In this document: one piece after another, positions 4,105-50,188 of the stretch
Numbering within the stretch: the first letter of the stretch is position 1
Layout of the letters: each line of letters starts with the position of its first letter
From: Escherichia coli
Lineage (GTDB): Bacteria; Pseudomonadota; Gammaproteobacteria; Enterobacterales; Enterobacteriaceae
DNA length: 64,000 nt
Direction: 5' to 3' (one strand)
Assembly: GCF_036507355.1 (NCBI RefSeq)
Contig: NZ_AP027877.1
Notes under the pieces: generated by a model
The model's input: only the letters and a program-made list of their open reading frames with translations
Told to the model about the DNA's origin: nothing
Database searches by the model: none
Program-made: the position numbers and the translations under genes

Positions 4105-4115
4105 TTTTGGATGAT

Positions 4116-4912: not shown

Positions 4913-5415
4913 TTACTGATAGTGTTTTATGTTCAGATAATGCCCGATGGCCTTGTCATGCAGCTCCACCGATTTTGAGAACGACAGTGACTTCCGTCCC
5001 AGCCTTGCCAGATGTTGTCTCAGATTCAGATTATGTCGCTCAATGCGCTGAGTGTAACGCTTGCTGATAACGTGCAGCTTTCCCTTCAGGCGTGATTCAT
5101 ACAGCGGCCAGCCATCCGTCATCTATACTACGACCTCAAAGGCCGACAGCAGGCTCAGAAGACGCTCCAGTGTGGCCAGAGTGCGTTCACCGAAGACGTG
5201 GCCACAACCGTCCTCCGTATCCTGTCATACGCGTAAAACAGCCAGCGCTGACGTGATTTAGCACCGACGTAGCCCCAATGTTCGTCCATTTCAGCGCAGA
5301 CAATCACATCACTGCCCGGTTGTATGCGCGAGGTTACCGACTGCGGCCTGAGTTTTTTAAGTGACGTAAAACCGTGTTGAGGCCAACGCCCATAATGCGT
5401 GCACTGGCGCGACAT
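4913..5415 (-). pseudogene. insB: IS1 insB broken into two ORF fragments (4913-5122 and 5155-5415)
   Basis: Copy 2 has a continuous 167-aa InsB ORF; here the same protein is split across two frames. Confidence 0.6.
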
Positions 5416-5609
5416 CCGACGCCATTCATGGCCATATCAATGATTTTCTGGTGCGTACCGGGCTGAGAGGCGGTGTAAGTGAACTGCAGTTGCCATGTTT
5501 TACGGCAATGAGAGCAGAGATAGCGCTGATGTCCGGCAGTGCTTTTGCCGTTACGCACCACGCCTTCAGTAGCGGAGCAGGAAGGACATCTGATGGAAAT
5601 GGAAGCCAC
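5334..5609 (-). CDS. insA: IS1 InsA
   Basis: 91-aa [46 protein letters not shown]... Confidence 0.85.
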
Positions 5610-5923
5610 GCAAGCACCTTAAAATCACCATCATACACTAAATCAGTAAGTTGGCAGCATTACCAAATTTTAATTACACTTAAGGTGTATATTTTCTATG
5701 CAAGCCATCAATTAAAGAGGTGTAATGTGCTGATGACTATTTGTAATCGTTATACATTCTGACCTGGAGTCAGAAGGTATTTCTCTGTCTGTGTATTCGC
5801 AGGCAGTGTGGTTGATTACATGAAATTCAGTACATTTGTCCTTCTCGCCTGCCTTTCGTCATTACCGACGGTATTGAATTTCGTTTTCCCCATTGGGGTT
5901 CTCCGGACAAGGAGTTGTTTGTT

Positions 5924-7156
5924 ATGCCACGTTTTTTTGCCCGCCATGCCGCCACGCTGTTTTTCCCGATGGCGTTGATTTTGTATGACTTTGCTGCGTA
6001 TCTGTCGACGGACCTGATCCAGCCAGGGATCATTAATGTGGTCCGTGATTTTAATGCCGATGTCAGTCTGGCCCCGGCTGCCGTCAGTCTCTATCTCGCT
6101 GGAGGCATGGCATTGCAGTGGCTGCTGGGGCCGCTTTCCGACAGGGTTGGCCGCAGGCCGGTGCTGATTACCGGGGCGCTAATATTTACCCTTGCCTGTG
6201 CTGCGACAATGTTCACAACGTCTATGACACAGTTTCTTATCGCGCGTGCAATTCAGGGCACCAGTATCTGTTTTATTGCCACCGTTGGTTATGTCACGGT
6301 GCAGGAGGCGTTCGGACAGACAAAAGGGATCAAGTTGATGGCGATTATCACCTCCATCGTACTGATTGCGCCGATTATTGGCCCGCTTTCCGGCGCAGCT
6401 CTGATGCACTTTGTGCACTGGAAAGTCCTTTTTGCCATCATTGCGGTTATGGGTTTTATCTCATTTGTTGGCTTACTGCTGGCGATGCCAGAGACGGTGA
6501 AGCGCGGCGCGGTTCCATTTAGCGCCAAAAGCGTCTTGCGCGATTTTCGTAATGTCTTTTGCAATCGGCTGTTCCTCTTTGGCGCAGCAACCATCTCTTT
6601 AAGCTATATCCCCATGATGAGTTGGGTGGCTGTCTCGCCGGTGATCCTGATCGACGCGGGCGGCTTAACAACTTCGCAGTTCGCCTGGACACAGGTTCCG
6701 GTGTTCGGCGCGGTGATTGTCGCGAATGCCATCGTGGCGCGTTTCGTTAAAGATCCGACCGAACCGCGCTTTATCTGGCGTGCCGTACCCCTTCAACTGG
6801 TTGGCCTCGCGCTGTTGATTATCGGCAATCTGCTGTCACCGCACGTCTGGCTGTGGTCGGTGCTGGGCACCAGTCTGTATGCTTTCGGGATTGGTTTGAT
6901 TTTCCCGACCTTATTCCGCTTTACGCTGTTTTCCAATAACTTACCGAAAGGGACCGTCTCCGCATCGCTGAATATGGTGATCCTGATGGTGATGTCTGTC
7001 TCGGTCGAAATCGGCCGCTGGCTGTGGTTTAACAGCGGTCGCTTGCAGTTTCATCTGTTAGCCGTTGTGGCAGGCGTTATCGTCGTTTTCACCCTGGCCG
7101 GATTGCTTAATCGCGTGCGCCAACATCAGGCTGCCGAGCTGGCGGAGGAGCGGTGA
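5924..7156 (+). CDS. mdtM: MFS multidrug efflux transporter
   Basis: From [35 protein letters not shown] matches my memory of MdtM; hydrophobic multi-TM profile. Confidence 0.9.
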
Positions 7157-7196
7157 TTTTTGCGCGATCCTGCCGTCAGGCTCTATTCTTAACATT

Positions 7197-8477
7197 ATGA
7201 ATAAACTCATTGAACTCAGACGCGCCAAAATGTTGGCGCTCTCTTTACTGCTTATCGCCGCTGCTACCTTTGTCGTTACGCTGTTTTTGCCGCCTAATTT
7301 TTGGGTGAGCGGCGTGAAGGCGATTGCTGAAGCGGCGATGGTCGGCGCGCTGGCGGACTGGTTTGCGGTGGTGGCGCTGTTTCGCCGCGTGCCGATTCCG
7401 ATCATTTCTCGTCATACGGCGATTATTCCGCGTAATAAAGACCGGATTGGCGAAAATCTCGGCCAGTTCGTGCAGGAAAAATTTCTCGATACCCAATCGC
7501 TGGTGGCATTGATTCGACGTCACGAACCGGCGTTGTTGATTGGCAACTGGTTTAGTCAGCCAGAAAACGCCCGCCGCGTTGGTCAGCATCTGTTGCAGAT
7601 CATGAGCGGTTTTCTTGAACTAACCGATGATGCGCGTATTCAGCGCCTGCTTAAGCGCGCGGTCCACCGGGCGATTGATAAAGTCGATCTTTCTGGCACC
7701 AGTGCGTTGATGCTGGAGAGTATGACTAAAAACGATCGTCATCAGGTGCTGCTGGATACGCTGATCGCACAGTTGATCGCCCTTCTCCAGCGCGATAAAT
7801 CGCGCAAGTTTATTGCCCAGCAAATTGTTCGCTGGCTGGAGAGCGAGCATCCACTGAAAGCCAAAATTTTGCCCACTGAATGGCTGGGCGAACATAGCGC
7901 GGAGTTGGTTTCTGACGCGGTGAATTCTTTGCTTGATGATATCAGCCGCGATCGTGCGCATCAGATCCGCCATGCGTTTGATCGCGCTACCTTCGCCCTG
8001 ATCGAGAAACTGAAAAACGATCCGGAAATGGCGGCGCGAGCCGATGCCGTAAAAAGCTATCTGAAAGAAGATGAAGCTTTTAACCGCTATCTCAGTGAAT
8101 TGTGGGGGGATTTACGGGAATGGCTGAAAGCGGATATCAACAGTGAAGATTCTCGTGTGAAAGAACGTATCGCGCGGGCTGGTCAATGGTTTGGCGAAAC
8201 GTTAATTGCCGATGATGCCTTGCGGGCGTCGTTAAATGGTCATCTGGAACAAGCCGCACACCGCATTGCGCCTGAGTTTTCCGCATTCCTGACTCGCCAT
8301 ATCAGCGACACGGTAAAAAGCTGGGACGCACGGGATATGTCGCGGCAAATCGAGTTAAATATCGGCAAAGATCTCCAGTTTATCCGTGTCAACGGTACGC
8401 TGGTTGGCGGTTGTATTGGACTTATTTTGTATTTGCTGTCGCAGCTCCCGGCCTTGTTCCCCCTCGGCAATTTATAG
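7197..8477 (+). CDS. yjiN: DUF445 inner-membrane protein
   Basis: From [27 protein letters not shown]; the ATG at 7197 was checked in the sequence. The track ORF carries a 44-codon N-terminal extension that overlaps mdtM. Confidence 0.8.
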
Positions 8478-8592
8478 AAATCCATGAAAAACTAAGTGGC
8501 TAACCGCGAGAGAGATCAAATAAACCACACTAAAAGAATGGTAATAATGTGGCCTCTTTTCATTATCTCCCGTGGTACGGGGAAGGAAAATC

Positions 8593-9254
8593 ATGTCACT
8601 TGTCACCGATCTACCCGCCATTTTCGATCAGTTCTCTGAAGCTCGCCAGAAAGGCTTTCTCACCGTCATGGATCTCAAGGAGCGCGGCATTCCGCTGGTT
8701 GGCACCTACTGCACCTTTATGCCGCAAGAGCTCCCGATGGCAGCCGGTGCGGTTGTGGTTTCGCTATGTTCCACCTCTGATGAAACCATTGAAGAAGCCG
8801 AGAAAGATCTGCCGCGCAACCTCTGCCCGCTGATTAAAAGCAGCTACGGCTTCGGCAAAACCGATAAATGCCCCTACTTCTACTTTTCTGATCTGGTGGT
8901 CGGTGAAACCACCTGCGACGGCAAAAAGAAAATGTATGAATACATGGCGGAGTTTAAGCCCGTTCATGTGATGCAACTGCCAAACAGCGTTAAGGACGAT
9001 GCCTCGCGTGCATTATGGAAAGCCGAGATGCTGCGCTTGCAAAAAACGGTAGAAGAACGTTTTGGGCACGAGATTAGCGAAGATGCTCTGCGCGATGCCA
9101 TTGCGCTGAAAAACCGCGAACGTCGCGCACTGGCCAACTTTTATCATTTGGGGCAGTTAAATCCTCCAGCGCTTAGCGGCAGCGACATTCTGAAAGTAGT
9201 CTACGGCGCAACCTTCCGGTTCGATAAAGAGGCGTTGATCAATGAACTGGATGC

Positions 9255-9258
<4 letters not shown>
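8593..9258 (+). CDS. yjiM: 2-hydroxyacyl-CoA dehydratase component (HgdB-like), N-terminal ORF of a split yjiM
   Basis: MSLVTDLPAIFDQFSEARQKGFLTVMDLKERGIPLVGTYCTFMPQE...; ends ...ELDA at a TGA that overlaps the next ATG. Confidence 0.7.
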
Positions 9259-10520
<1,262 letters not shown>

Positions 10521-10691
10521 AAGAGTATCTGTTTTTATTTCACTCCACGGTCGGCGTCATACAAACCCGCAAGGCGTTGCAGGCAGCGGGCATGACTTTT
10601 CGCGTCAGCGATATTCCCCGTGATTTACGCGGCGGCTGCGGGTTATGCATTTGGCTGACCTGTCCGCCTGGCGAGGAAATTCAATGGGTGA

Positions 10692-11699
<1,008 letters not shown>

Positions 11700-11766
11700 C
11701 AGGCTGGCATGTTTCACCTTTTTGTTATTAACTTGTTAACAACAAAAATGACAAACAAGGTTAAAC

Positions 11767-12945
11767 ATGCCTTCGCCCTCGCATCCCGTAGAACGCTTTT
11801 CTTTCAGCACCGCGCTTTTCGGGATGCTGGTTCTGACCTTAGGTATGGGTTTAGGCCGCTTCCTTTATACGCCTATGTTGCCCGTCATGATGGCGGAAGG
11901 ATCGTTTTCATTTAGCCAGCTCTCGTGGATTGCCAGCGGCAACTATGCGGGGTATCTGGCTGGCAGTCTGCTATTTTCGTTTGGCGCATTTCACCAGCCA
12001 TCGCGCCTGCGCCCATTTCTGTTGGCTTCTGCCCTGGCGAGCGGGTTGTTGATCCTCGCAATGGCATGGTTGCTGCCATTTATTCTGGTGTTATTGATTC
12101 GCGTCCTGGCGGGTGTCGCCAGCGCCGGTATGCTGATTTTTGGTTCGACGCTGATTATGCAGCACACGCGCCATCCTTTTGTGCTGGCAGCTTTGTTTTC
12201 TGGCGTTGGCATTGGCATCGCACTGGGCAATGAATATGTTCTGGCAGGCCTGCATTTTGACCTCTCCTCGCAAACGTTATGGCAAGGCGCCGGGGCGCTT
12301 TCTGGCATGATGCTGATTACACTTACGCTTTTAATGCCCTCGAAAAAACACGCCATCACACCAATGCCATTGGCAAAAACGGAGCAACAGATAATGAGCT
12401 GGTGGTTACTGGCTATTCTGTACGGCCTGGCGGGATTTGGTTATATCATCGTCGCGACTTACCTGCCGCTCATGGCGAAAGATGCAGGCTCACCATTGTT
12501 AACCGCCCATCTCTGGACGTTAGTCGGCTTATCAATTGTGCCTGGTTGCTTTGGCTGGCTATGGGCAGCAAAACGTTGGGAGGCTTTGCCCTGCCTGACG
12601 GCGAATTTGCTGGTGCAGGCTATCTGTGTGCTGCTTACTCTCGCCAGCGACTCGCCTCTCTTGCTTATCATCAGCAGTCTTGGTTTTGGCGGTACCTTTA
12701 TGGGCACGACATCTCTGGTGATGACTATCGCCCGCCAACTGAGCGTACCGGGAAATCTCAATCTTTTAGGCTTTGTGACGCTCATTTACGGCATTGGACA
12801 AATCCTCGGCCCGGCGCTGACCAGTATGCTCGGCAATGGAACATCGGCGCTTGCCGGCGCCACTCTCTGCGGCGCGGCGGCGTTGTTTATTGCTGCGCTT
12901 ATCAGCACAGTACAATTATTTAAGCTGCAAGTGGTCACTTCATGA
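11767..12945 (+). CDS. yjiJ: MFS-type transporter (DUF1228)
   Basis: 392-aa hydrophobic ORF in the K-12 position of yjiJ. Confidence 0.8.
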
Positions 12946-12957
12946 GGAGTGTTTCCC

Positions 12958-13512
12958 TTACCACTCAAGAAATTCGACCGCAACAGTTGATGTCAGCCAG
13001 ACCCCGTTTTCCGCTTGCCAGAAAGGGAGGCCTCGTTTCGCCATTTCCTGTGCTTTGACGGTTAAAATAACCGGCGATCCGTGTCTTGCTCCCACTTTGC
13101 GTGCCGTTGCTTCATCAGCAGAGAGATGTACGTAGTGACGCTCACCTGCAATCAGCCCCTGTTTTTTTATCTCGTCAAGGAAACGGCTTGCCGTACCGTG
13201 GTAGAGAAACTGTGGCGGTGTTTTTTCGGCAAAGGAAATAGCGACCTGCGAAGTCGAATGCCCCTGAACCGCGCGGATGCACCTACCATCACTGGAATAA
13301 CTAAAACGCTTTTTATCGCTGGTGGCAACCACGGTATCCAGCAATGCACGGGTTAACCGCTTGCCCGCTTTTTGGGCACAAAGTATGAGCTTATCGATAT
13401 CCGCCCATCCTTCACGGTCCAGTACGATACCAATCGCCTCCGGTTTGTGTCGGAGGACAAAACTTAAAAACTTGCTCGTATCCGCCAGCTCTTTTTCGTT
13501 GTACTTTGCCAT
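12958..13512 (-). CDS. kptA: RNA 2'-phosphotransferase (Tpt1/KptA)
   Basis: 184-aa [45 protein letters not shown]... matches my memory of KptA. Confidence 0.85.
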
Positions 13513-13749
13513 CGCGTTTTCGTCCCTGGATTATCTGTTTTTTATTTACTATGTCATTGTCACTGGGTTTATGAATTTTCTGCAACTCAATCCTGCGTAG
13601 AACCTTTTCCACACAGCGTAATTTTACCGCTATGCAAAAAACGCATAGTCAGAAACATACTTGCATTTTCCCCATACCCACATGGCTGATAAGGTTTTTC
13701 AGCTCCAGGAATTTTCCTGGCTCAAGCAACACACAAACACAAAAAAACA

Positions 13750-14439
13750 ATGGGGATTGTTATGACACAACAAGGGGATGCTGTAGCCGGGGAGCTGGCG
13801 ACAGAAAAAGTGGGCATTAAAGGGTATCTGGCTTTTTTTCTCACCATAATCTTTTTTTCCGGTGTTTTTTCCGGGACAGACAGTTGGTGGCGCGTTTTTG
13901 ATTTTTCCGTTCTGAACGGATCGTTTGGGCAACTGCCTGGTGCGAACGGAGCCACCACCTCGTTTCGCGGCGCGGGTGGCGCGGGGGCTAAAGATGGCTT
14001 TCTCTTTGCGCTGGAGCTGGCACCGTCAGTCATTCTCTCTCTGGGGATTATTTCAATTACCGATGGTCTTGGCGGATTACGCGCCGCGCAGCAGTTAATG
14101 ACGCCAGTGCTAAAACCGTTGTTGGGCATTCCAGGGATCTGCTCGCTGGCGCTGATCGCTAACCTGCAAAACACCGATGCCGCCGCAGGTATGACCAAAG
14201 AGCTGGCGCAGGAAGGTGAAATTACCGAACGCGATAAAGTGATTTTCGCCGCATATCAAACCAGCGGTAGCGCCATTATCACCAACTACTTCTCTTCCGG
14301 CGTCGCGGTGTTTGCCTTTCTGGGCACGTCCGTAATCGTACCTTTAGCAGTCATCCTGGTGTTTAAATTTGTCGGAGCCAACATTTTGCGCGTCTGGCTT
14401 AACTTCGAAGAACGTCGCAACCCAACGCAAGGAGCGTAA
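13750..14439 (+). CDS. yjiH: Nucleoside-recognition-domain membrane protein
   Basis: 229-aa membrane ORF in the K-12 position; exact start uncertain. Confidence 0.75.
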   Translation: MGIVMTQQGDAVAGELATEKVGIKGYLAFFLTIIFFSGVFSGTDSWWRVFDFSVLNGSFGQLPGANGATTSFRGAGGAGAKDGFLFALELAPSVILSLGIISITDGLGGLRAAQQLMTPVLKPLLGIPGICSLALIANLQNTDAAAGMTKELAQEGEITERDKVIFAAYQTSGSAIITNYFSSGVAVFAFLGTSVIVPLAVILVFKFVGANILRVWLNFEERRNPTQGA

Positions 14440-14441
14440 GC

Positions 14442-14903
14442 ATGACAACTCAGGTCCGCAAAAACGTCATGGATATGTTTATCGATGGTGCGCGCCGTGG
14501 CTTTACTATCGCCACGACCAACCTGCTGCCAAACGTGGTGATGGCGTTTGTCATCATTCAGGCGCTGAAAATTACCGGCCTGCTCGACTGGGTGGGGCAT
14601 ATCTGTGAACCCGTAATGGCGCTGTGGGGATTACCCGGTGAAGCGGCAACCGTCCTTTTAGCCGCATTAATGAGTATGGGTGGCGCAGTCGGTGTTGCCG
14701 CCAGTCTGGCAACCGCTGGCGCATTAACCGGTCACGATGTCACCGTTTTACTGCCCGCGATGTATTTAATGGGCAACCCGGTGCAAAATGTCGGTCGCTG
14801 CCTGGGGACAGCCGAAGTGAATGCCAAATATTACCCGCATATCATTACGGTCTGCGTGATTAACGCATTGCTGTCGATCTGGGTTATGCAGCTTATTGTT
14901 TAA
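14442..14903 (+). CDS. yjiG: SpmB-like inner-membrane protein
   Basis: 153-aa membrane ORF immediately after yjiH, as in K-12. Confidence 0.8.
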   Translation: MTTQVRKNVMDMFIDGARRGFTIATTNLLPNVVMAFVIIQALKITGLLDWVGHICEPVMALWGLPGEAATVLLAALMSMGGAVGVAASLATAGALTGHDVTVLLPAMYLMGNPVQNVGRCLGTAEVNAKYYPHIITVCVINALLSIWVMQLIV

Positions 14904-40804: not shown

Positions 40805-42190
40805 ATGAACGACATCTCTTCTGACGACATCTTCCTGCTAAAACAGCGCCTGGCCGAACAGGAAGCGCTGATCCACGCCCTGCAGGAAAAGCTGAGCAAC
40901 CGGGAGCGCGAAATAGACCATCTGCAGGCGCAGCTGGATAAACTCCGCCGGATGAACTTCGGCAGTCGTTCCGAAAAAGTCTCCCGCCGTATCGCACAAA
41001 TGGAAGCCGATCTGAACCGGCTTCAGAAAGAGAGCGATACGCTGACTGGTAGGGTGTATGACCCGGCAGTACAGCGTCCGTTGCGTCAGACCCGCACCCG
41101 TAAGCCGTTCCCTGAATCACTACCCCGTGACGAAAAGCGACTGTTGCCTGCGGCGCCGTGCTGCCCGAACTGCGGCGGTTCACTGAGCTATCTGGGCGAG
41201 GATACCGCCGAACAGCTGGAGTTGATGCGTAGCGCCTTCCGGGTTATCCGGACGGTACGGGAAAAACATGCCTGTACTCAGTGCGATGCCATCGTGCAGG
41301 CACCTGCACCTTCGCGGCCCATCGAGCGGGGTATCGCCGGACCGGGGCTGCTGGCCCGCGTGCTGACCTCGAAGTATGCAGAGCACACCCCGCTGTATTG
41401 CCAGTCAGAAATATACGGCCGGCAAGGTGTGGAGCTGAGCCGTTCACTGCTGTCGGGCTGGGTGGATGCATGCTGCCGGCTGCTGTCTCCGCTGGAAGAG
41501 GCGCTTCATGGCTATGTCATGACTGACGGCAAACTCCATGCCGATGATACCCCGGTCCAGGTACTGCTGCCGGGTAATAAGAAGACGAAGACCGGGCGGT
41601 TGTGGGCGTATGTTCGTGATGACCGCAATGCCGGGTCAGCGTTGGCACCTGCAGTGTGGTTCGCTTACAGCCCGGACAGAAAAGGCATCCATCCGCAGAC
41701 TCATCTTGCTTGCTTCAGCGGTGTGCTGCAAGCGGATGCGTACGCCGGGTTCAACGAGCTGTATCGCAATGGTGGGATAACGGAAGCTGCCTGCTGGGCT
41801 CATGCCCGCCGAAAGATCCACGATGTGCACGTCCGCATCCCGTCAGCACTGACGGAAGAAGCCCTAGAGCAGATCGGTCAGTTGTACGCCATAGAGGCGG
41901 ATATAAGGGGAATGCCGGCAGAGCAGCGGCTTGCTGAACGTCAGCGAAAAACGAAACCGCTGTTGAAATCCCTGGAAAGCTGGTTGCGTGAAAAGATGAA
42001 GACCCTGTTCTTCGGCTCTGGCCATGGTGGTGAGCGGGGAGCGCTACTGTACAGCCTGATCGGGACGTGCAAACTGAATGACGTGGATCCAGAAAGCTAC
42101 CTTCGCCATGTGCCTGGCGTCATAGCAGACTGGCCGGTCAACCGGGTCAGCGAACTGCTTCCGTGGCGCATAGCACTGCCAGCTGAATAA
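40805..42190 (+). CDS. IS66-family transposase (orfC)
   Basis: 461-aa ORF with an N-terminal coiled coil and a CxxC...CxxC zinc-ribbon region. Confidence 0.75.
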   Translation: MNDISSDDIFLLKQRLAEQEALIHALQEKLSNREREIDHLQAQLDKLRRMNFGSRSEKVSRRIAQMEADLNRLQKESDTLTGRVYDPAVQRPLRQTRTRKPFPESLPRDEKRLLPAAPCCPNCGGSLSYLGEDTAEQLELMRSAFRVIRTVREKHACTQCDAIVQAPAPSRPIERGIAGPGLLARVLTSKYAEHTPLYCQSEIYGRQGVELSRSLLSGWVDACCRLLSPLEEALHGYVMTDGKLHADDTPVQVLLPGNKKTKTGRLWAYVRDDRNAGSALAPAVWFAYSPDRKGIHPQTHLACFSGVLQADAYAGFNELYRNGGITEAACWAHARRKIHDVHVRIPSALTEEALEQIGQLYAIEADIRGMPAEQRLAERQRKTKPLLKSLESWLREKMKTLFFGSGHGGERGALLYSLIGTCKLNDVDPESYLRHVPGVIADWPVNRVSELLPWRIALPAE

Positions 42191-42428: not shown

Positions 42429-43787
42429 TTATTTCAACGCTTCCGGCAGCGTCACAATCCACAGTTCACTGTCAGACTCCGGTTTCTCCAGTGGCTTCAC
42501 TCTGAGGGTCGTTTCAACCTGCTTGTCGTCAAGCGTCAGCTTTCCTTCCGCGTTCACCCGATAATCCTTGAATGTCTTGCCCTCGACCGGATGTTGCATC
42601 GCCACCTTCACGCCAAAGTCGTTATCGTTCGCCACCGCCAGCGTTTTGCTGTCGATCAGCGCCAACCCTTCAGCCTTCTCCTGCTGCCAGCCCAAGGAGC
42701 GCAGATCAACAACCTGCGTTTTCTGCGCAAGGGTAATGCCGCGCTGTGACAGGGTTTTCTCATCATCAAACTCCGGATACTCACCCGGCTTGTCGAAGCC
42801 TGACAGGTCGCTCGCCTTATTGAGATCGACCTCGTAAATCAGGTTACGCATTCTGTTGTTTTTATCTCTTCCCTGTTCGATCAGCAGGATGTGCTGGTTA
42901 TCGAGCGCCACGATGTCTCCGATTTTAGCGTCGCTGTTTTTGCTGTAGGCCGCGCTGTCGATAGGATAACCGTACATCGCGGTTTTTCCGCTTGCCGGAT
43001 CGAAGCTCACCAGACGCGTAAACAGCGCCTTTTTCTTGCTCTTAGCGTCGATATCCAGCGTACTTTGCACGGCGACAATAATACGCCCGTCCGGCATACG
43101 GGTGAGGCCTTCAAAGCCGCGGTTCGCCTGACGCCATTTGAGGATATTTGGCAAACCGCCCGCAATCGCTTTTTCCCCTTCCGCCGCCTGCGGACCGTGG
43201 ATTGCCAGGATTTTCCCTTTACTGTCGATGTTAATCAGGAACGGGCCATACTCATCGCACAGCCAGTAACCTCCTTTACCATCCGGAGTGATCCCTTCCG
43301 TATCCAGCCCGCGATTATCCCCCTTCAGTCTATGTAACGTGTCGCTGAAGGCCACTTCATTGGTGGAGCCAATCACGTCGCTTGCCAGCGGCAGACCGTT
43401 GATCGCGCCTTTATCGTCATGCAGAGGACGGGGATCGATGGCCTCCGCTTTGCCGTTTTGTACACGAATCGTCATCAGCAGCGGCGCGAAATCTGGCGTA
43501 ACGAAAATTTTAGTTTCGTTTTTCCCCTCTTTCGGTGAATCCGCGTTCGGACCGCGATCGGTAATGGTTGCGAATGTCAGGGCATCGCCCTGTTTACCGG
43601 TGAACAGCAGGCCAGAACCTATCCCAACCGGAAGGCCGTTCGGGAATGCACTGGCAAATGCGCCGGCGTAGTTCACGTGCGTGCCTTCTGGAAAACTGAC
43701 GACATAGCGCTCAGCCGTAGGTTGTGCCGCCAGGGCAGAGAAAGAGAGCGTACAACCGATTAGCACGGGAATAATTTTTCTTTTCAT
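42429..43787 (-). CDS. Secreted beta-propeller protein, phytase-like esterase family (tentative)
   Basis: Signal peptide MKRKIIPVLIGCTLSFSALAA; repeated blades with TEGI / FEGL / AEGL and DEYGP motifs. Confidence 0.45.
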   Translation of the reverse strand: MKRKIIPVLIGCTLSFSALAAQPTAERYVVSFPEGTHVNYAGAFASAFPNGLPVGIGSGLLFTGKQGDALTFATITDRGPNADSPKEGKNETKIFVTPDFAPLLMTIRVQNGKAEAIDPRPLHDDKGAINGLPLASDVIGSTNEVAFSDTLHRLKGDNRGLDTEGITPDGKGGYWLCDEYGPFLINIDSKGKILAIHGPQAAEGEKAIAGGLPNILKWRQANRGFEGLTRMPDGRIIVAVQSTLDIDAKSKKKALFTRLVSFDPASGKTAMYGYPIDSAAYSKNSDAKIGDIVALDNQHILLIEQGRDKNNRMRNLIYEVDLNKASDLSGFDKPGEYPEFDDEKTLSQRGITLAQKTQVVDLRSLGWQQEKAEGLALIDSKTLAVANDNDFGVKVAMQHPVEGKTFKDYRVNAEGKLTLDDKQVETTLRVKPLEKPESDSELWIVTLPEALK

Positions 43788-44071
43788 ATTGTTAGCATCC
43801 ATAAAGTGAAGATCACACTACACCATAAAGAAGAAACGAGTCAGGAAAATGACATCGAATGGCAACATGCGCGGGCCTGAGGCCAAAGAAATGTAAAACA
43901 CTGTTGTTATTTGTAACAACGGAAACATTTACGGAAATTATTTGTCTTTCTTCGTGATCAAAAATGCTGTGTCTTGTTGGATTGGAGTGATGAGGGCTGC
44001 GTTTAGGAAACGCCCTATATTGTACGGTTGCATTATCGCGGTAGGGGTAATGCACGTGTCAGTATGATGAG

Positions 44072-44200
44072 CTGACCACACTCACGTGGGTGGACTGGTA
44101 TAACAATCGACGATTGCTGGAAAGGCAGGGCCATATCCCACCGGCAGAAGCAGAAAAAGCTTATTATGCTTCCATCGGAAACGATGATCTGGCAGCCTGA
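44072..44200 (+). pseudogene. C-terminal remnant of a DDE (rve-type, IS3-like) transposase
   Basis: Translates to ...WVDWYNNRRLLERQGHIPPAEAEKAYYAS...*, a typical transposase C-terminus; no upstream body. Confidence 0.4.
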
Positions 44201-44298
44201 GTTCACAGATAAAACACTCTCCAGGAAACCCGGGGCGGTTCACTTAGCCGCGTGTCCATTATTGCTGGATAAGATCATAACGAGGTAATGACTCCAAC

Positions 44299-44802
44299 TT
44301 ATTGATAGTGTTTTATGTTCAGATAATGCCCGATGACTTTGTCATGCAGCTCCACCGATTTTGAGAACGACAGCGACTTCCGTCCCAGCCGTGCCAGGTG
44401 CTGCCTCAGATTCAGGTTATGCCGCTCAATTCGCTGCGTATATCGCTTGCTGATTACGTGCAGCTTTCCCTTCAGGCGGGATTCATACAGCGGCCAGCCA
44501 TCCGTCATCCATATCACCACGTCAAAGGGTGACAGCAGGCTCATAAGACGCCCCAGCGTCGCCATCGTGCGTTCACCGAATACGTGCGCAACAACCGTCT
44601 TCCGGAGCCTGTCATACGCGTAAAACAGCCAGCGCTGGCGCGATTTAGCCCCGACATAGCCCCACTGTTCGTCCATTTCCGCGCAGACGATGACGTCACT
44701 GCCCGGCTGTATGCGCGAGGTTACCGACTGCGGCCTGAGTTTTTTAAGTGACGTAAAATCGTGTTGAGGCCAACGCCCATAATGCGGGCTGTTGCCCGGC
44801 AT
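44299..44802 (-). CDS. insB: IS1 InsB (transposase frame)
   Basis: 167-aa ORF ...[42 protein letters not shown]... Confidence 0.85.
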
Positions 44803-44996
44803 CCAACGCCATTCATGGCCATATCAATGATTTTCTGGTGCGTACCGGGTTGAGAAGCGGTGTAAGTGAACTGCAGTTGCCATGTTTTACGACAGTGAGA
44901 GCAGAGATAGCGCTGATGTCCGGCGGTGCTTTTGCCGTTACGCACCACCCCGTCAGTAGCTGAACAGGAGGGACAGCTGATAGAAACAGAAGCCAC
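44721..44996 (-). CDS. insA: IS1 InsA
   Basis: 91-aa [46 protein letters not shown]... Confidence 0.9.
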
Positions 44997-45065
44997 TGGA
45001 GCACCTCAAAAACACCATCATACACTAAATCAGTAAGTTGGCAGCATCACCGGCCTCGCATTTAA

Positions 45066-45911
45066 TTATTCATTTAAAGATTCAAGAAATGTCCAGCCTT
45101 TATGAGTAACATAATACATTTGTCCTTTTGCCCCTCTTTCAATCACAAAATCAAAGGATAACAGTTCGTTAAGTGCGCCCTCCCAACGGGCTACCTCTCT
45201 AGCCGAACTTCCACCAAAGGATTGATTTCCCGCTTGAATATCCGTGCCACCTAAATGCCTTATCACATAAATTGTTCCGCTATCATCGACACATGCCAAT
45301 TTCAGCAAACTGAGTGCATCGGCGGACAAATTACTTTCTGGCAAAGATTGACTTGTATTCGCATCAGGAGAATTGTTAATGGTAGATATAAGAGAAGACA
45401 AATAAGGGCTACTAGAAATAATTATCGAAAGTTGCCTACGGACTTTGTCTTTGAAATCAGATAAGTCATTAAAAGACTCTATCAATCCCTTTTGCATGCA
45501 CTCAATTTTGAACAATTTAAGAGACTCATATTGTTCTCTATCAAGGCTTTCAGGGGCAACAGGCTTTGAGGAAAAGTAAATCATTGCCGGTTTTCCCGCA
45601 TTCAAATGACGGTGAATTTCTTCGACTGTTCCGCTGGCCTCGTTCCCAGTCGGTGAGCCTAGACGAGTCCAAAACACACCGATTAATAAATCACAATCTA
45701 CTAATAATCTTTGATTAATCAACTCCTGAGGCCTAACTCCTAATTCGGGTGATGTATGAGTTTCCCATCCAATTGGTGTCAACATTACTTTTGAACGAGC
45801 TGAATTTATATCATTCCACTCATGGATCATTTCACGAATGACTTGTCTCTCTTCAGCGACATCACCAGGAGAAGCAATCATTACAGGGATAACAGTTGCT
45901 GTGTAAGCCAT
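45066..45911 (-). CDS. Hypothetical protein with DUF4062-like N-terminal domain and an uncharacterised C-terminal domain
   Basis: N-terminus VMIASPGDVAEERQVIREMIHEW ... DCDLLIGVFWTRLGSP ... SGTVEEIHRHLNAGKPAMIYF resembles the DUF4062 pattern as I recall it; GGAGAG RBS 6 nt upstream; visibly AT-rich. Confidence 0.45.
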   Translation of the reverse strand: MAYTATVIPVMIASPGDVAEERQVIREMIHEWNDINSARSKVMLTPIGWETHTSPELGVRPQELINQRLLVDCDLLIGVFWTRLGSPTGNEASGTVEEIHRHLNAGKPAMIYFSSKPVAPESLDREQYESLKLFKIECMQKGLIESFNDLSDFKDKVRRQLSIIISSSPYLSSLISTINNSPDANTSQSLPESNLSADALSLLKLACVDDSGTIYVIRHLGGTDIQAGNQSFGGSSAREVARWEGALNELLSFDFVIERGAKGQMYYVTHKGWTFLESLNE

Positions 45912-45924
45912 AAACTCTCCATAT

Positions 45925-46485
45925 TCAATCGGTAATAGCTGCTACAGTCGCTCTTGAAACGCCATATTGACGCGCTAACGCACTGATACTCAAACCGCTA
46001 TTCTTTTTCTCTAAAATCTCTCTACGGGCTTCTGACGCGATTTTAGGAGGTCTGCCCAATTTCTTACCTTCGGCTTTTGCTCGTGATAGTCCCGCCTGAG
46101 TGCGCTCAATCAGCAGATCACGCTCCATCTCCGCAACCGCGGCGAGCATAGATAATAGCAACTTCCCAGCGGCAGAAGTGAGATCTGTGTTACCAAGCTG
46201 GTGGACAAGAACCTTGATATTACGGTCAGCCAGCGCCCTTACCGTTTGCAGGACGTCAATCGCATCACGCCCCAGACGATCAAGCTTCGCTACCACCAAC
46301 GTTTCACCATCGCGGATTTTATTGAGCATTTCAGAAAATGCTTTACGTTGCATTGCCGGAACCTTCCCGCTAACAACATCGGCAAACCAGTAATCAATTT
46401 GCCACCCAGCCTGCCCAAGCTCCAGCCGTTGGTTCTCAGTATCCTGCTGCGATGTCGAAACACGTCCGTAGCCAAAAGTTGCCAT
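45925..46485 (-). CDS. Small serine recombinase (resolvase/invertase family), about 186 aa
   Basis: From MATFGYGRVSTSQQDTENQ (catalytic Ser region) with a C-terminal helix-turn-helix (LSISALARQYGVSRATV); GGGGAG RBS upstream of the ATG at 46485. The track ORF carries a 23-codon extension. Confidence 0.8.
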   Translation of the reverse strand: MATFGYGRVSTSQQDTENQRLELGQAGWQIDYWFADVVSGKVPAMQRKAFSEMLNKIRDGETLVVAKLDRLGRDAIDVLQTVRALADRNIKVLVHQLGNTDLTSAAGKLLLSMLAAVAEMERDLLIERTQAGLSRAKAEGKKLGRPPKIASEARREILEKKNSGLSISALARQYGVSRATVAAITD

Positions 46486-46507
46486 TGTTATCTCCCCATC
46501 TGACCCC

Positions 46508-46605
46508 TGCCAGAAAACGAGGCCAACATTAGGATGGCCTGCCAGAAAAGCCAAGGCTATTTTTCCAACAGTGTGAAAGCGTGCGATTGGGAGGTGCCAG
46601 AAAAC
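46508..46605. promoter_or_regulatory. Three direct copies of TGCCAGAAAA(C/G) upstream of the recombinase gene, plus a short GGCCA...TGGCC palindrome; candidate recombinase binding or regulatory site
   Basis: Copies read at 46508, 46540 and 46595; the GGCCAACATTAGGATGGCC palindrome lies between the first two. Confidence 0.35.
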
Positions 46606-47460
46606 GGTCGATTGATGACACCATCAAACACTAACAGTGTGCCCCGGCAACGCGCGCCTGCAACGGTTGTCTCGGATGAGCAAAATCTTAGGGTTTTCTC
46701 AGCGACCCCTGACGCGCGGGCACGCACATGCTCACGGGGGCGCGGGCGAGCTATACAGTTGAGGGAGGGGCAACCATAAGCGTGCAATTTTTCAAGCCGG
46801 GGATTCAGCTATAGGCTAACGGTAGAATGCGGCTTGTAGAGGGTTGTGCGCACATACCCAGTACAATCGCATTACTCCACGCGCACAAACCCCGGAGAGC
46901 CGCTTGCGGTGGGGGTTTAAGAGGTACAATTTTTGGTTCGGGTCATAAAGGACTTTTGAGAGCTGACTTAGCTTATTTAAACTGCATTCGTCTTGGCTAT
47001 GGAGACACGAGGCAGCTCAAGTTTTGTTCAAAACTTTGCAATATTTTGGTTCGATCTCATGTTCTCGTGCTAAAGAAATCAGCACTCGATCAAATTTTCA
47101 TTTTTTTTCTGAAACATTGACATACAGCCTAAGCCTTAAGGCACGTAGGGTTGGTCGAAATTTCCCTTTGACAACCTCAATTTAACCTCAAAATCAACCC
47201 TTGTACTGCAAAGAATCCTAACTAGAATGCTGAACATGTAGGGGGGAATCTTATTAACACACCCTATATGTTGTGCTCATGTATAAATGATGGGCATAAA
47301 AAAACCGGAGTCACCTGCGTGAATCCGGTCTATGAAGCATGACCGCCATGAGTCTGCAAACTCATAACGATTGTTAGCCTCACTATCGTTTCTAACGGCT
47401 CGATTGTGCCCGGCTTGGTTGGTTATGTAAACAGTAAGATAAAATCAAAAGGAACGATCC

Positions 47461-48375
47461 ATGCTTATTCAGAAAAAGCGTATTCGAAATATTGATAATT
47501 ACATACCTAACTTTGATGGCCGTGATATCTACATTGCACATTCTTTGCCAGATGCGGGGAAAACGGACTCTATTGGTTTCTCAAGTCAAAGAGCTTTAGG
47601 TGAAGAAGTCCTCCCCAAGATTTTAGGGCCAATAACCAGATTCAATGCTAATGGCAAATCAGTACCTGACAAAACAGCACCTAAAGAAACTGCATACAGA
47701 CAAATTTCATGGACTAGAAAGCAATGGATCGGAGGGGGCGCAACTCAAGAAGTTACTGACACTCGTGAAATTGAGTATAAGCGCTACAAGAGAATCCTCA
47801 CCCCTCCACCAAGCATAGAGTTAAAGATTGTAGAGAATCTTCAAGGGGAGAAGTTGATCATCTCTCCAAAGCTAAGTTTGACAGCTAACAACAAAGAGTT
47901 AGTGGCTCACTGCATTAATCTTTTTTTAGAGCTTTTTGGGTTGTGCGAAACTGTTGACGACCAACTTAATACCATCGTTAAAAGTAAATCTATAAAACTA
48001 AACTGGAGCCTCCTGCCTCAGGGTCAACAGCCTTGGAGTACTATCGGTTCAAAAATCCTTTCAGCTATTAAGATCAGGGGAAAGGGCAATACCGCTGTTG
48101 TTGAAGGCAGACTTGAACTTATCAATAGTAAAAAACCAGATTTCGTAGCGGTTGGGCAAGCTGGGTTCCAAGGCTACGTGATATTTGGGTTCACAGGCCA
48201 AAACATTTACGTGCTAGAAAGCTCACAATGTAATAACGCAACTTATATACTTAACAATAATTGGCAGCAGTTATCCCAGCTAACTAAAGCCGAAATACTA
48301 GACGGAAACTTGCACCATGCCCGTGTCATCCACCGTGTAAACTGGGCAGCAGAAATACTTAAATACTTACCATAA
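47461..48375 (+). CDS. Hypothetical protein (304 aa), no domain recognised
   Basis: ATG preceded by an AAGGAA RBS at about 8-nt spacing; visibly AT-rich; no homologue recognised by eye. Confidence 0.5.
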   Translation: MLIQKKRIRNIDNYIPNFDGRDIYIAHSLPDAGKTDSIGFSSQRALGEEVLPKILGPITRFNANGKSVPDKTAPKETAYRQISWTRKQWIGGGATQEVTDTREIEYKRYKRILTPPPSIELKIVENLQGEKLIISPKLSLTANNKELVAHCINLFLELFGLCETVDDQLNTIVKSKSIKLNWSLLPQGQQPWSTIGSKILSAIKIRGKGNTAVVEGRLELINSKKPDFVAVGQAGFQGYVIFGFTGQNIYVLESSQCNNATYILNNNWQQLSQLTKAEILDGNLHHARVIHRVNWAAEILKYLP

Positions 48376-48888
48376 AGCGCCGGACGCGCGGGAATGAACC
48401 CCCGCGCACTTTCAAACATACCGCAATAGAATCCATAAAGCCCCGTTGGTGGTAAGACAACAAGCGGAGCCTCTGGCGACTACATCACAGTTATGTCAGT
48501 TAGTGAGGCTTATCAGGATGACCATGTACCCAAGGGGAGCGAGGCCGAACCGCTGGCAGAGCTTGCATATGGTCTGCAAGTACCGTGACCACCATAAACC
48601 TGTTTATCCCCTGCGGCGTCTCGCGACAGCGGCAGAACGGGGGCATCGGGCTAAAATGCGCTTCACTAAAAGTTTTTGGGATTGTTTAGAGACAGTGGCT
48701 ACGTCATAGCTTTCAAGTTGAGTCAGTACGTGTTTGACGCTTGGAACTACACGCCGCTATGAGTTAACATCCCAATTACCACTATCAACCACAGCGGCTT
48801 TTTCAAGGGACATAACAGAGCATTTCTTACAGGCAAAAGAGACAGATTTTATTGTCTAACTACCTGTATTGTAAGGAATTTAGTGACT

Positions 48889-48973
48889 TGGTGCCGAAGG
48901 CCGGACTCGAACCGGCACGTATTTCTACGGTTGATTTTGAATCAACTGCGTCTACCGATTTCGCCACTTCGGC
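48889..48973 (-). tRNA. leuX: tRNA-Leu (leuX type, CAA anticodon)
   Basis: Reverse complement reads GCCGAAGTGGCGAAATCGGTAGACGCAGTTGATTCAAAATCAACCGTAGAAATACGTGCCGGTTCGAGTCCGGCCTTCGGCACCA, a cloverleaf with a long variable arm and CCA end. Confidence 0.9.
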
Positions 48974-49168
48974 ACTGAAGAGGTATGCGGAAAACGTTGT
49001 GGATTATACCTGTCGCACGCCACCATGCAAGCGCCAGCTTGCTCGCACCTCGCTAAGTGCTGAAATTTTCAGCATTGCATACAGCGATGTGTAACCTTTG
49101 TCACACTCCAGGCACCCCGCCCTGCCATGCTCTACACTTCCCAGACAACACCAGAGAAGGACCAAAAA

Positions 49169-50188
49169 ATGTCGATGATAAAAAGCTATGCCGCAAAAGA
49201 AGCAGGCGGCGAACTGGAAGTTTATGAGTACGATCCCGGTGAACTGAAGCCACAAGATGTTGAAGTGCAGGTGGATTACTGCGGGATCTGCCATTCCGAT
49301 CTGTCGATGATCGATAACGAATGGGGATTTTCACAATATCCGCTGGTTGCCGGGCATGAGGTGATTGGTCGCGTGGTGGCGCTCGGGAGCGCCGCGCAGG
49401 ATAAAGGTTTGCAGGTCGGTCAGCGTGTCGGGATTGGCTGGACGGCGCGTAGCTGCGGGCATTGCGATGCCTGTATTAGCGGTAATCAGATCAACTGTGA
49501 GCAAGGTGCGGTGCCGACGATTATGAATCGCGGTGGCTTTGCCGAGAAGTTGCGTGCGGACTGGCAATGGGTGATTCCACTGCCAGAAAATATTGATATC
49601 GAGTCCGCCGGGCCGCTGTTGTGCGGTGGTATCACGGTCTTCAAACCACTGTTAATGCACCATATCACTGCCACCAGCCGCGTTGGGGTAATTGGTATTG
49701 GCGGGCTGGGGCATATCGCTATAAAACTTCTGCACGCAATGGGATGCGAGGTGACAGCCTTTAGTTCGAATCCGGCGAAAGAGCAGGAAGTACTGGCGAT
49801 GGGTGCCGATAAAGTGGTGAATAGCCGCGATCCGCAGGCACTGAAAGCACTGGCGGGGCAGTTTGATCTCATTATCAACACCGTCAACGTCAGCCTCGAC
49901 TGGCAGCCTTATTTTGAAGCGCTGACGTACGGCGGTAATTTCCATACGGTCGGTGCGGTTCTCACGCCGCTGTCTGTTCCGGCCTTTACGTTAATTGCGG
50001 GCGACCGCAGCGTCTCTGGTTCTGCTACCGGCACGCCTTATGAGTTGCGTAAGCTGATGCGCTTTGCCGCCCGCAGCAAGGTTGCGCCGACTACCGAATT
50101 GTTCCCGATGTCGAAAATTAACGACGCCATTCAGCATGTACGCGATGGTAAAGCGCGCTACCGAGTGGTCCTGAAAGCCGACTTCTGA
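49169..50188 (+). CDS. ahr: NADPH-dependent aldehyde reductase (zinc alcohol dehydrogenase family)
   Basis: From [26 protein letters not shown]...GHEVIG...GIGGLGH. Confidence 0.9.

Follow-up and report, generated by a model that had tools for sequence, protein, structure and literature searches.

What brings a small serine recombinase gene, a gene for a DUF4062-like protein and a divergent gene of 304 codons together beside a tRNA-Leu gene of Escherichia coli, and do the three act as one module? The question arises from a 64,000-nucleotide stretch of E. coli DNA (hereafter the window), for which an original prediction had proposed an uncharacterised accessory module, possibly recombinase-controlled or defence-related. 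Our analysis indicates that the region probably consists of two unrelated units joined to each other beside leuX, a resolvase/DUF4062 islet core and a leader/304-aa cassette, each with its own proposed role. Its features are the following (positions in the window):

44284-45051, minus strand: IS1 (768 bp), from its insA/insB ORFs and IS1 end sequences
45066-45911, minus strand: DUF4062 (TIR-like) protein of 281 aa; a helical stalk follows the N-terminal domain, and the C-terminus is predicted to be a winged helix
45925-46485, minus strand: small serine recombinase (resolvase/invertase family), 186 aa
46508-46620: three recombinase-type sites, found as repeats directly upstream of the recombinase gene
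46508-46528: site A
46540-46570: site B
46595-46620: site C, which reads TGCCAGAAAACG-GT-CGATTGATGACA (12+2+12)
46621-47072, no strand: junction DNA (455 bp) between the recombinase sites and the conserved leader
47073-47460, plus strand: conserved leader of the 304-aa gene (about 390-400 bp), from alignments
47201-47228: candidate leader promoter, TTGTAC (47201-47206), 16 nt, TAGAAT (47223-47228)
47298-47396, minus strand: candidate cis-antisense small RNA of about 100 nt, with a long hairpin, a terminator hairpin (47305-47328) and a U7 tail
47461-48375, plus strand: 304-aa protein of a large stand-alone uncharacterised family
48423-48888, no strand: non-coding stretch between the 304-aa gene and leuX
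48889-48973, minus strand: tRNA-Leu(CAA), leuX, from ARAGORN and Rfam
48889-48913: attachment core (the 3' 25 bp of leuX), of which related genomes have a second copy, in direct orientation, at the distal end of the islet

The three open reading frames stand where they had originally been placed, the recombinase being counted from its ATG, and they belong to conserved protein families, so that they are genes and not chance ORFs. The recombinase and 281-aa genes do lie on the same strand, but the gap between them, originally put at 10 bp, measures 13 nt from stop to start and contains a GGAGAG Shine-Dalgarno sequence belonging to the 281-aa gene. The spacer of about 980 bp upstream of the recombinase holds as a distance (975 bp from ATG to ATG) but not as untranslated spacer, since the recombinase sites, the junction DNA and the leader lie inside it. 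The adjacent tRNA-Leu gene was correctly recognised and is leuX, as its flanking genes ahr, yjgR and lptG/F indicate. The region forms that end of E. coli defence hotspot #37 which lies nearest to leuX, in agreement with the tRNA-linked defence position originally suggested. Many occupants of this hotspot carry integrase or recombinase genes alone (PMC10121019; PMC12707154). The leuX islands of Hochhauser et al. 2023 (PMC10121019) share with the present one their chromosomal position, small size, integrase and/or recombinase, defence cargo and otherwise the absence of mobility genes. In contrast to that description, one island family is resolved here into a backbone, two cargo slots, 25-bp repeats and a sister element at thrW, and the window copy is a derivative that lost the integrase and was then truncated by IS1.

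Perfect copies of the 25-bp leuX repeat occur in an ST648 genome (L001, 13240-13264 and 18838-18862) and also bound the element of locus L011, while no second copy was found in the window. IS1 is inserted 14 bp past the stop codon of the 281-aa gene; the match to uninterrupted genomes begins at 45052, and this strain lacks what would follow in the islet (membrane protein, HTH regulator and distal repeat). On the tRNA side, the non-coding stretch before leuX is 96.6% identical to L105 (4772-5236) and to L017, and 69-79% identical to L116 and L019. In ATCC 25922 this sequence borders the distal repeat of the integrase-bearing islet on its outer side; it is therefore older leuX-flanking DNA.

The recombinase is indeed a small serine recombinase, as first proposed. 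It carries the GYGRVSTSQQ catalytic motif (Ser10) and a C-terminal HTH (residues 155-184), and matches gamma-delta resolvase (E 1.4e-25) and Gin invertase (E 6.5e-23) over their full length as well as PHROG 125 (E 1e-55), the closest PHROG being a 'DNA invertase'. Its sister-islet copy is 84% identical. This gene is part of the backbone of a family of small tRNA-integrating islets with the order tyrosine integrase, NIPSNAP, cargo slot, res-like array and serine resolvase, second cargo slot, membrane protein and XRE-type HTH. Sister islets have both a tyrosine integrase and tRNA 3'-end direct repeats. The family and its cargo slots are seen in ATCC 25922, O157:H7 and a thrW islet, and relatives carry Gabija or genes without known function as slot cargo (Gabija in the thrW islet, GajA E 1.9e-282). 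A tblastn search identified neither an integrase nor its remnant between leuX and the recombinase gene in the window, and the islet copy seen here is a degenerate derivative.

The sequence and spacing of the three sites are kept in four islet variants with unrelated upstream DNA. No promoter passed a simple scan of the minus strand over 46486-46640. The arrangement resembles the res sites of Tn3 and gamma-delta: the gene of a serine recombinase of 186 aa, whose catalytic serine is N-terminal and whose HTH is C-terminal, is directly preceded by three putative binding sites over about 115 bp, the outermost being a 12+2+12 inverted pair, similar to a crossover site, at which homology between elements breaks. 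It differs from Tn3/gamma-delta in that the loci examined contain no transposase, that the gene resides in tRNA-integrating islets with a tyrosine integrase, and that the recombinase is as similar to invertases (Gin; PHROG 125) as to resolvases.

The same recombinase/DUF4062 allele is present in 387 of 5,426 complete E. coli genomes, and 760 of 780 matching places lie on chromosomes. In about 84-90 of the 387 the pair is joined by the 304-aa gene; in about 300 others this allele has an integrase arm at the position taken here by the 304-aa gene. Among the matches listed without the 304-aa gene, homology ends at query base 1552, which is position 46617 of the window and lies inside site C; homology to integrase-bearing islets also stops in site C. 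Matches over the full length of the junction DNA were limited to about 90 E. coli genomes that share the window arrangement, and tblastn detected no remnants of the integrase, NIPSNAP or DUF1643 genes in it. The junction of the two units falls on the central dinucleotide of site C, the outermost of the three. This homology breakpoint suggests that site-specific recombination there replaced the integrase arm of the islet.

Beyond E. coli, the pair was also found in Citrobacter and another enterobacterium. A recombinase neighbors the 281-aa homologue in 3 of 80 species-level loci, all from Enterobacteriaceae, and no related recombinase lies within 6 kb in the other 77. Homologues of the 281-aa protein are solo or otherwise partnered in Kangiella and Stutzerimonas. 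Among the 304-aa homologue loci of other genera, a DUF4062 homologue is adjacent in one Legionella contig only. The comparison of neighborhoods proposed with the original prediction thus shows co-occurrence in other genomes in part, and does not sustain a single three-gene cassette.

The DUF4062-like N-terminus of the 281-aa protein is upheld by profile searches. The Pfam match (PF13271) is weak for this protein alone (E 3e-4) and systematic across its family, in which all 29 members match at E<=0.1 and 19 of them at E<=1e-3; the PADLOC model PDC-S60 also matches the N-terminal part (E 1.7e-26). Alignment by hhalign of this lineage with one canonical DUF4062 protein reaches a probability of 34%, and identity to a canonical DUF4062 protein is 22%. 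Across 29 diverse homologues, residues W49, E50, E97 and E98 vary little or not at all, and the segment SGTVEE (93-98) aligns with SYTEKE of the canonical protein. Fold matches of the model include TIR domains (L6 and RRS1) and nucleoside deoxyribosyltransferases. In the AlphaFold2 model, helices (125-180) are followed by a helix/beta-hairpin/helix domain (197-281, pLDDT 82-92), which has a weak Pfam HTH_45 match. This C-terminal domain, originally left unrecognised, is now predicted to be a winged helix like the Swarozyc sensor domain. E. coli alleles of the protein are about 90% identical over the N-terminal 118 residues and about 48% in the C-terminal part, a pattern that would fit a conserved effector joined to a fast-evolving sensor.

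Swarozyc (KpSwz) and Evangelion (Eva01), described in two 2026 preprints, are single-gene DUF4062 NADase abortive-infection defences (10.64898/2026.05.01.722283; 10.64898/2026.06.25.731849). They combine DUF4062 with an auxiliary domain to form an anti-phage NADase, in which Glu97 of KpSwz is catalytic; the C-terminal auxiliary sensor domain is needed for defence and is in KpSwz an HTH/winged helix that binds the phage portal (10.64898/2026.05.01.722283). The KpSwz and EcSwz sequences are UPI001927123B and UPI0002A39D72, the latter denoting the E. coli protein that Osinski et al. tested. One member of the 281-aa cluster, ELG19830.1, has a deposition period that fits this tested protein and is noted as a lead only.

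The 281-aa protein shares with these systems a TIR-like N-terminus whose invariant E97/E98 align with the catalytic SYTExE glutamate, a W-E motif (W49-E50), and a helical stalk with an auxiliary C-terminal domain behind it, for which a winged helix like that of the KpSwz sensor is predicted. It is likewise encoded by a single gene (about 280 aa) that belongs to mobile defence islands of enterobacteria. By analogy with these demonstrated anti-phage NADases, the defence role suggested for the DUF4062 gene gains support, and the protein is predicted to be an NADase abortive-infection defence protein of the Swarozyc/Evangelion type. However, its lineage is divergent, as the Pfam score and the low identity to the canonical protein indicate, and its gene follows that of a resolvase, an arrangement that has not been reported for the characterised systems. 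Moreover, the portal-contacting W238/Y239 hairpin of KpSwz has no obvious counterpart, and the trigger may differ from the portal.

The 304-aa protein had been called an orphan, a label that does not apply: one search returned 722 homologues and another 2,012 clusters at 50% identity, from bacteria and archaea. Members are all about 305 aa long, about 40-45% identical over long distances and patchy in their spread. No model of PADLOC 2.0, PHROGs or NCBIfam matches the protein. Its structural model is confident and has no known fold. Homologues neighbor AbiU, AbiL together with CBASS, Thoeris and SIR2_2; one adjoins a 281-aa homologue in a Tn7-like element. Some other neighborhoods are uninformative. 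A further homologue sits inside a P2-like prophage, flanked there by baseplate-spike and tail-completion genes, in a slot that may correspond to the orf30 position of P2. As in the accessory slots of prophages and satellites (P2 old/tin, P4 hotspot; PMC9122126), this homologue is a single opposite-strand gene in the tail block, and a conserved leader bears an alternative DUF4062 cargo in another element; the slot differs from the gpA-gpQ hotspot of Rousset et al. 2022 (PMC9122126).

The leader itself is about 90% conserved over the block 47295-47440, and the leader-gene-tRNA arrangement is seen at three different tRNA genes. On a metagenomic contig (L115), the same leader precedes other cargo, an 88-aa ORF and a canonical DUF4062 protein. 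The antisense candidate within it has a predicted fold of -42.2 kcal/mol (z -4.8), and a promoter scan gave a promoter-like TTTACA-17-CACAAT at 47431-47403. Its structure is kept in 5 distinct sequences, but with only one compensatory pair. In enterobacteria the 304-aa family may, tentatively, represent swappable cargo behind a conserved 400-bp leader that encodes a cis-antisense small RNA, which would keep the cargo silent until infection. Since members of the family recur beside Abi, CBASS, Thoeris and SIR2 genes and a DUF4062 gene in one case replaces the 304-aa gene as cargo, the latter is a good candidate for a new defence gene.

Could recombinase, DUF4062 gene and 304-aa gene nevertheless form one module, with the recombinase switching its expression or orientation through an invertible promoter or gene? 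The invertase-like PHROG match, the syntenic clustering of the three genes within 3.3 kb in 84 complete E. coli genomes and the adjacent homologues in Legionella would be consistent with this. Yet the islet has no second site within 3 mismatches with which the array could pair to flank an invertible segment, the 5.6-kb ST648 islet contains no extra half-site at <=2 mismatches, and related islets have isolated single half-sites at most and in no case a second paired site. A Hin/Gin-type inverted pair of crossover sites is absent, and all 84 genomes are co-linear on one strand without any inverted arrangement. The integrase arm takes the place of the 304-aa gene beside the same allele in most genomes, other genera give the 304-aa gene other partners, and sister islets carry other cargo or none behind the recombinase. 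A single module switched by the recombinase is largely refuted and highly improbable. A narrower proposal unites only the recombinase and the DUF4062 protein in a two-component defence, the former being a DNA-binding regulator or sensor needed by the NADase. The two genes are co-oriented in close succession and kept together as two diverged alleles (protein identities of 84% and 65%), and they also occur side by side in Citrobacter and another enterobacterium; against this, nearly all species-level loci lack the recombinase, characterised DUF4062 defences act as single genes, and the same recombinase backbone occurs with unrelated cargo in convergent orientation (O157:H7) or without downstream cargo (thrW). 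We consider such a partnership quite unlikely.

The pair might also be a fragment of a Tn3-family transposon comprising res site, tnpR and passenger gene. The position of the array, the best solved-structure matches (gamma-delta and Tn3 resolvases) and the homology breakpoint at the outer site all recall such elements, and a breakpoint there is typical of res-mediated module exchange, as in Tn3/Tn21 mosaics. However, no DDE transposase gene lies beside the pair in any of five related loci (L001, L011, L105, L106 and L107), the elements that contain the pair end in direct repeats of the tRNA 3' end and have a tyrosine integrase on the tRNA side, and the places where the pair matches are overwhelmingly chromosomal, making this origin very unlikely. 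As for the 304-aa protein, it could be a solo restriction-type nuclease (modification-dependent or tolerated through host methylation) or a non-defence prophage accessory, and not of the abortive-infection or sensor type. Three homologues in the AlphaFold database are automatically named 'Restriction endonuclease', the family is stand-alone, patchy and divergent as restriction enzymes often are, and a methyltransferase and a helicase lie within 4 kb of the Kosmotoga homologue. A restriction endonuclease fold was sought and not found, with Pfam matches in 0 of 34 family members and no nuclease among the significant fold matches, and this reading appears rather unlikely.

We therefore favor two units of separate origin. 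The first (45066-46620) would be the central part of a small tRNA-integrating islet with the DUF4062 gene in the slot behind the resolvase. Judging from its characterised relatives, the DUF4062 protein would rest as an autoinhibited oligomer until its winged-helix domain binds a phage component; binding would free the TIR-like domain, with Glu97/98 as predicted catalytic residues, to hydrolyse NAD+, and the infected cell would die before phage release. The resolvase would bind the three sites upstream of its own gene, where it most likely represses its own promoter and hence read-through into the DUF4062 gene; it most likely resolves or recombines copies of the element and would take no part in the defence mechanism. 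The second unit (47073-48888) would be a leader-plus-cargo cassette; in other enterobacteria this cassette is found where phage-like elements border on the tRNA gene. The 304-aa protein encoded in it most likely acts on its own, as a single-gene anti-phage or exclusion factor, possibly restrained by the cis-antisense RNA. Replacement of the integrase arm would have come before the IS1 event that took out the distal arm.

The defence family to which the DUF4062 gene adds a divergent lineage has been known only since 2026. About 7% of complete E. coli genomes carry the gene, the reference strain ATCC 25922 among them, which makes it easy to test how far the NADase mechanism and its triggers extend. 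Most occupants of the leuX hotspot have no recognisable means of moving, and part of them is now given a structure: small islets bounded by repeats form a family that has an integrase, a resolvase and two cargo slots, and the resolvase site is suggested to be the place of module exchange. The 304-aa family provides a concrete, cloneable candidate for a new defence gene and is the most useful product of this analysis.

The leuX-proximal end of the window lies in hotspot #37 of Hochhauser et al. (PMC10121019). It is a mosaic of separate parts, not the one three-gene cassette of the original prediction. The positions first proposed for its three genes are those recovered here by ORF calling, and the features are as follows.

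44284-45051, complete IS1 (768 bp), ending 14 bp past the stop codon of the 281-aa ORF
45066-45911, minus strand, 281-aa ORF (ORF calling)
45925-46485, minus strand, 186-aa recombinase ORF (ORF calling)
47461-48375, plus strand, 304-aa ORF (ORF calling)
48889-48973, minus strand, tRNA-Leu(CAA)

The neighbouring genes ahr, yjgR and lptG/F identify the locus as E. coli leuX, reversed relative to the K-12 orientation. The G+C content is about 0.40 across the 281-aa and 304-aa genes versus about 0.53-0.56 in the core genes past leuX. Thirteen nucleotides, including a GGAGAG ribosome-binding site, separate the recombinase stop from the 281-aa start. An Rfam scan of 44000-49200 passed the tRNA alone, a weak potC-like match being attributed to chance, and the 975-bp gap between the recombinase and 304-aa genes yielded no retron or other known non-coding RNA. 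A 12-nt match of 47188-47199 to the leuX anticodon arm, together with other short repeats, is at chance level for 4 kb.

As originally proposed, the 186-aa protein belongs to the small serine recombinases. It carries a GYGRVS motif with Ser10 and a C-terminal HTH, and matches a PHROG 'DNA invertase' (E 1e-55), the gamma-delta resolvase (E 1.4e-25) and the Gin invertase (E 6.5e-23). Among 5,426 complete E. coli genomes, 756 contain DNA related to its gene. The ST648 islet spans 5.6 kb, from leuX at one end to a perfect 25-bp copy of the 3' end of leuX at the other. Its genes are those for an HTH regulator, a 164-aa membrane protein, the 281-aa protein, the recombinase and, across the 975-bp gap, the 304-aa protein. 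The recombinase/281-aa allele (99.5% identity) recurs in ATCC 25922 and about 300 other genomes, where the arm on the leuX side differs and encodes a 636-aa tyrosine integrase along with NIPSNAP and DUF1643 proteins. The O157:H7 islet has the same backbone and a recombinase gene with 81% DNA identity, behind which lie two unrelated genes in convergent orientation. At thrW, two tRNA-Thr copies enclose a sister islet (E. coli QA-1986 83, 3897-14607) with a complete Gabija system upstream of the recombinase (GajA E 1.9e-282, GajB E 1.8e-235); its downstream slot is empty. Comparison of these four islets indicates that the recombinase is a backbone gene with a cargo slot on each side.

Several members of these islets merit separate mention. 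In O157:H7 strain Rafaela_II, the slot behind the resolvase (4547-6788) is occupied by 257-aa and 438-aa genes without a PADLOC match, which are further defence candidates judged by position. The ST648 islet encodes at 13755-14219 a 154-aa HTH backbone protein, absent from the window, that resembles the C-proteins of restriction-modification systems and CapH (PADLOC Control_protein, E 1e-18) and may regulate cargo expression. The hypothetical protein at the far end of the thrW islet also measures 304 aa, yet is unrelated to that of the window.

Left of IS1, the window contains no continuation of the islet; the membrane-protein gene, HTH regulator and distal leuX repeat of ST648 have therefore been lost here. 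Strain ET745 has the same IS1 arrangement. An IS66-family transposase ORF (40805-42190) and a 457-aa secreted protein ORF (42429-43802), also left of IS1, appear to come from other parts of the leuX island.

Upstream of the recombinase gene, the motif TGCCAGAAAA is present three times within 46508-46604. When the whole 64-kb window is shuffled with its dinucleotide content preserved, about six one-mismatch matches to the motif are obtained. Alignment with three diverged islets resolves the repeats into three conserved putative sites with fixed spacing:

46508-46528, site A
46540-46570, site B, imperfect inverted pair about GCC-AA-GGC
46595-46620, site C, TGCCAGAAAACG-GT-CGATTGATGACA, a 12+2+12 inverted pair

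A res site ahead of the resolvase gene is the arrangement of Tn3 and gamma-delta, and the three-site layout of the islet appears similar. It had been suggested that the module may be recombinase-controlled. The PHROG and Gin matches of the protein are to invertases. However, the ST648 islet contains no further half-site at up to two mismatches, and related islets, searched for a second paired site, provided only isolated single half-sites. An invertible switch is not supported because neither ST648 nor the related islets searched have a second paired site. An inverted repeat (45128-45142 and 46759-46773) was discarded as an inversion site since it is not conserved and falls inside a coding region. 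Among the matches listed, the homology between the window and integrase-bearing islets stops at 46617, in site C, at its centre or in its distal half. Such a break is the expected trace of recombination at a crossover site, from which we infer that the integrase arm was probably swapped out at site C. An islet family that carries a resolvase, and a homology break at the resolvase site, add modest new detail to an already known phenomenon.

Beyond site C, 46621-47072 is a 455-bp non-coding and relatively G+C-rich segment, found at full length only in E. coli with this arrangement. About 57 other E. coli genomes share its bases 138-300, with 92-96% identity. Tblastn searches for integrase, NIPSNAP and DUF1643 remnants in 46486-47460 and 48376-48888 identified none. 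The stretch from 47073 to about 48487 shows about 73% homology to phage-like elements of other enterobacteria. This homology includes a 390-bp leader, in which the block 47295-47440 is about 90% conserved, exceeding the 304-aa gene itself. An origin of the leader in a P4 satellite was rejected: the backbone proteins are presumably unlike P4 Psu, Delta and Sid, and PHROGs indicate an O-like replication initiator together with a small integrase. The 466 bp from the 304-aa gene to leuX share 96.6% identity with DNA just outside the distal repeat of the ATCC 25922 islet and are therefore older leuX-flanking sequence.

The leader includes one further candidate feature:

47298-47396, minus strand, candidate cis-antisense RNA, about 100 nt long, facing the leader that precedes the 304-aa gene

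Its predicted minus-strand fold has a long hairpin and, behind it, a terminator hairpin with a U7 tail (dG -42.2 kcal/mol, z -4.8), with a promoter-like element at 47431-47403. The covariation check provided one compensatory pair, sequence diversity being too small for more, and the RNA is for this reason treated as a candidate.

The order leader, gene, 500 bp and tRNA is observed at three tRNAs: leuX in the window, thrW in another locus (L116) and tRNA-Gly in Serratia. In a metagenome contig (L115; Ga0153948_1000309, reverse-complemented), the same 400-bp leader (about 4790-5210) precedes a different cargo (5523-6545), an 88-aa ORF and a canonical 340-aa DUF4062 protein (Pfam E 4e-30), followed by a 454-aa tyrosine integrase. 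Judged by the shared leader, the contig and the window represent a cargo swap at one hotspot.

The 281-aa protein has a weak Pfam DUF4062 match (residues 10-99, E 3e-4). The match is systematic across its family, with E<=0.1 in 29/29 diverse homologues and E<=1e-3 in 19 of them, and the N-terminal 170 residues of the PADLOC defence candidate PDC-S60 match the protein at E 1.7e-26. The DUF4062-like N-terminus proposed earlier is thereby upheld. The family (2,158 hits) has a constant length of about 282 aa with about 55% identity between members, and is distributed among Proteobacteria, Desulfobacterota, Planctomycetota and others. Its invariant residues include W49, E97 and E98, and E50 is nearly invariant. 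The AlphaFold2 model (pLDDT 79.8) predicts three parts:

residues 6-114, flavodoxin/TIR-like alpha/beta domain
residues 125-180, long helices
residues 197-281, helix/beta-hairpin/helix domain behind a disordered linker

Foldseek matches of the N-terminal domain are to plant TIR domains and nucleoside 2-deoxyribosyltransferases, and in an alignment with a canonical DUF4062 protein, SGTVEE (93-98) falls on SYTEKE. DUF4062 was shown to be a TIR-like NADase (Osinski et al., 10.64898/2026.05.01.722283). Single-gene Swarozyc proteins, from Klebsiella and E. coli among other bacteria, act by abortive infection and shield E. coli from BASEL phages; in KpSwz, the catalytic residue is Glu97, and a helical stalk connects the TIR-like domain with a winged-helix auxiliary domain, whose binding to the phage portal switches the enzyme on (10.64898/2026.05.01.722283). 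In the related Evangelion systems, the catalytic Glu is conserved and there is a Q/W/E motif (Ibarra-Chavez et al., 10.64898/2026.06.25.731849). The 281-aa protein shares motifs and a predicted architecture with these characterised proteins, and its putative membership of the DUF4062 defence superfamily is supported. From the way the KpSwz constructs are numbered (15-C, 16-C), KpSwz would seem to belong to the canonical DUF4062 proteins, extended at the N-terminus, and to fall outside the exact 281-aa lineage. The latter is new and divergent, proteins of its kind having first been described in 2026. The recombinase adjoins the homologue in 3/80 species-level loci, all enterobacterial. The Kangiella homologue is a solo gene amid housekeeping genes and that of Stutzerimonas lies behind an HEPN gene.

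The 304-aa gene, previously considered an orphan, belongs to a large family. One search identified 722 homologues (about 45% identity) in Thermotogota, Methanobacterium, cyanobacteria and others. Clustered at 50% identity, the hits of an exhaustive profile search number 2,012, of which the best 150 are all stand-alone proteins of about 305 aa. Residues E76, R108, R111, H150, R217, E253 and K276 of the protein are invariant. None of 34 members has a Pfam domain and the protein itself matches no PADLOC, PHROG or NCBIfam model. A PD-(D/E)xK motif (PDF...ES) was rejected because the strand order of the predicted model does not fit.

One or two neighbourhoods of the homologues are uninformative. 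Others include defence or mobile-element genes: in Methanobacterium, an integrase gene beside those for SIR2_2 and HATPase proteins; ThiF, HNH and SIR2_2 genes elsewhere; a reverse transcriptase and an Eco57I-helicase gene in a conjugative element. Three viral contigs place the homologue right behind AbiU, flanked by an AbiL-like pair and a CBASS operon, and right ahead of Thoeris. In Proteus it is a lone opposite-strand gene of a P2-like prophage, between baseplate-spike and tail-completion genes; this slot is not the P2 hotspot of Rousset et al., which is gpA-gpQ (PMC9122126). A Legionella MAG (L035, 1265-3186) carries a homologue (35% identity) 180 bp upstream of a 281-aa homologue on the same strand, next to TnsA/TnsB-like genes of a Tn7-like element. 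Among the loci examined it is the only joint case of both families outside E. coli. Two unrelated contigs have a small DUF2188 ORF next to the homologue, upstream in one and downstream in the other (L123, 6625-6858; L125, 7957-8205). This ORF is absent from the window and could be a partner of the 304-aa protein in some lineages. These neighbourhoods and the cargo swap seen in L115 together make a strong guilt-by-association case for an anti-phage role of the 304-aa protein.

The leuX end thus has three parts. In a small leuX/thrW islet, a predicted DUF4062 NADase-type defence gene fills one cargo slot, the one behind the resolvase; a leader-plus-cargo unit with a candidate defence gene would have replaced the integrase arm at the outer site of the resolvase; and the distal arm has been removed by IS1. 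We put forward, tentatively, the possibility that the 304-aa proteins form a new and widespread defence family under antisense-RNA control.
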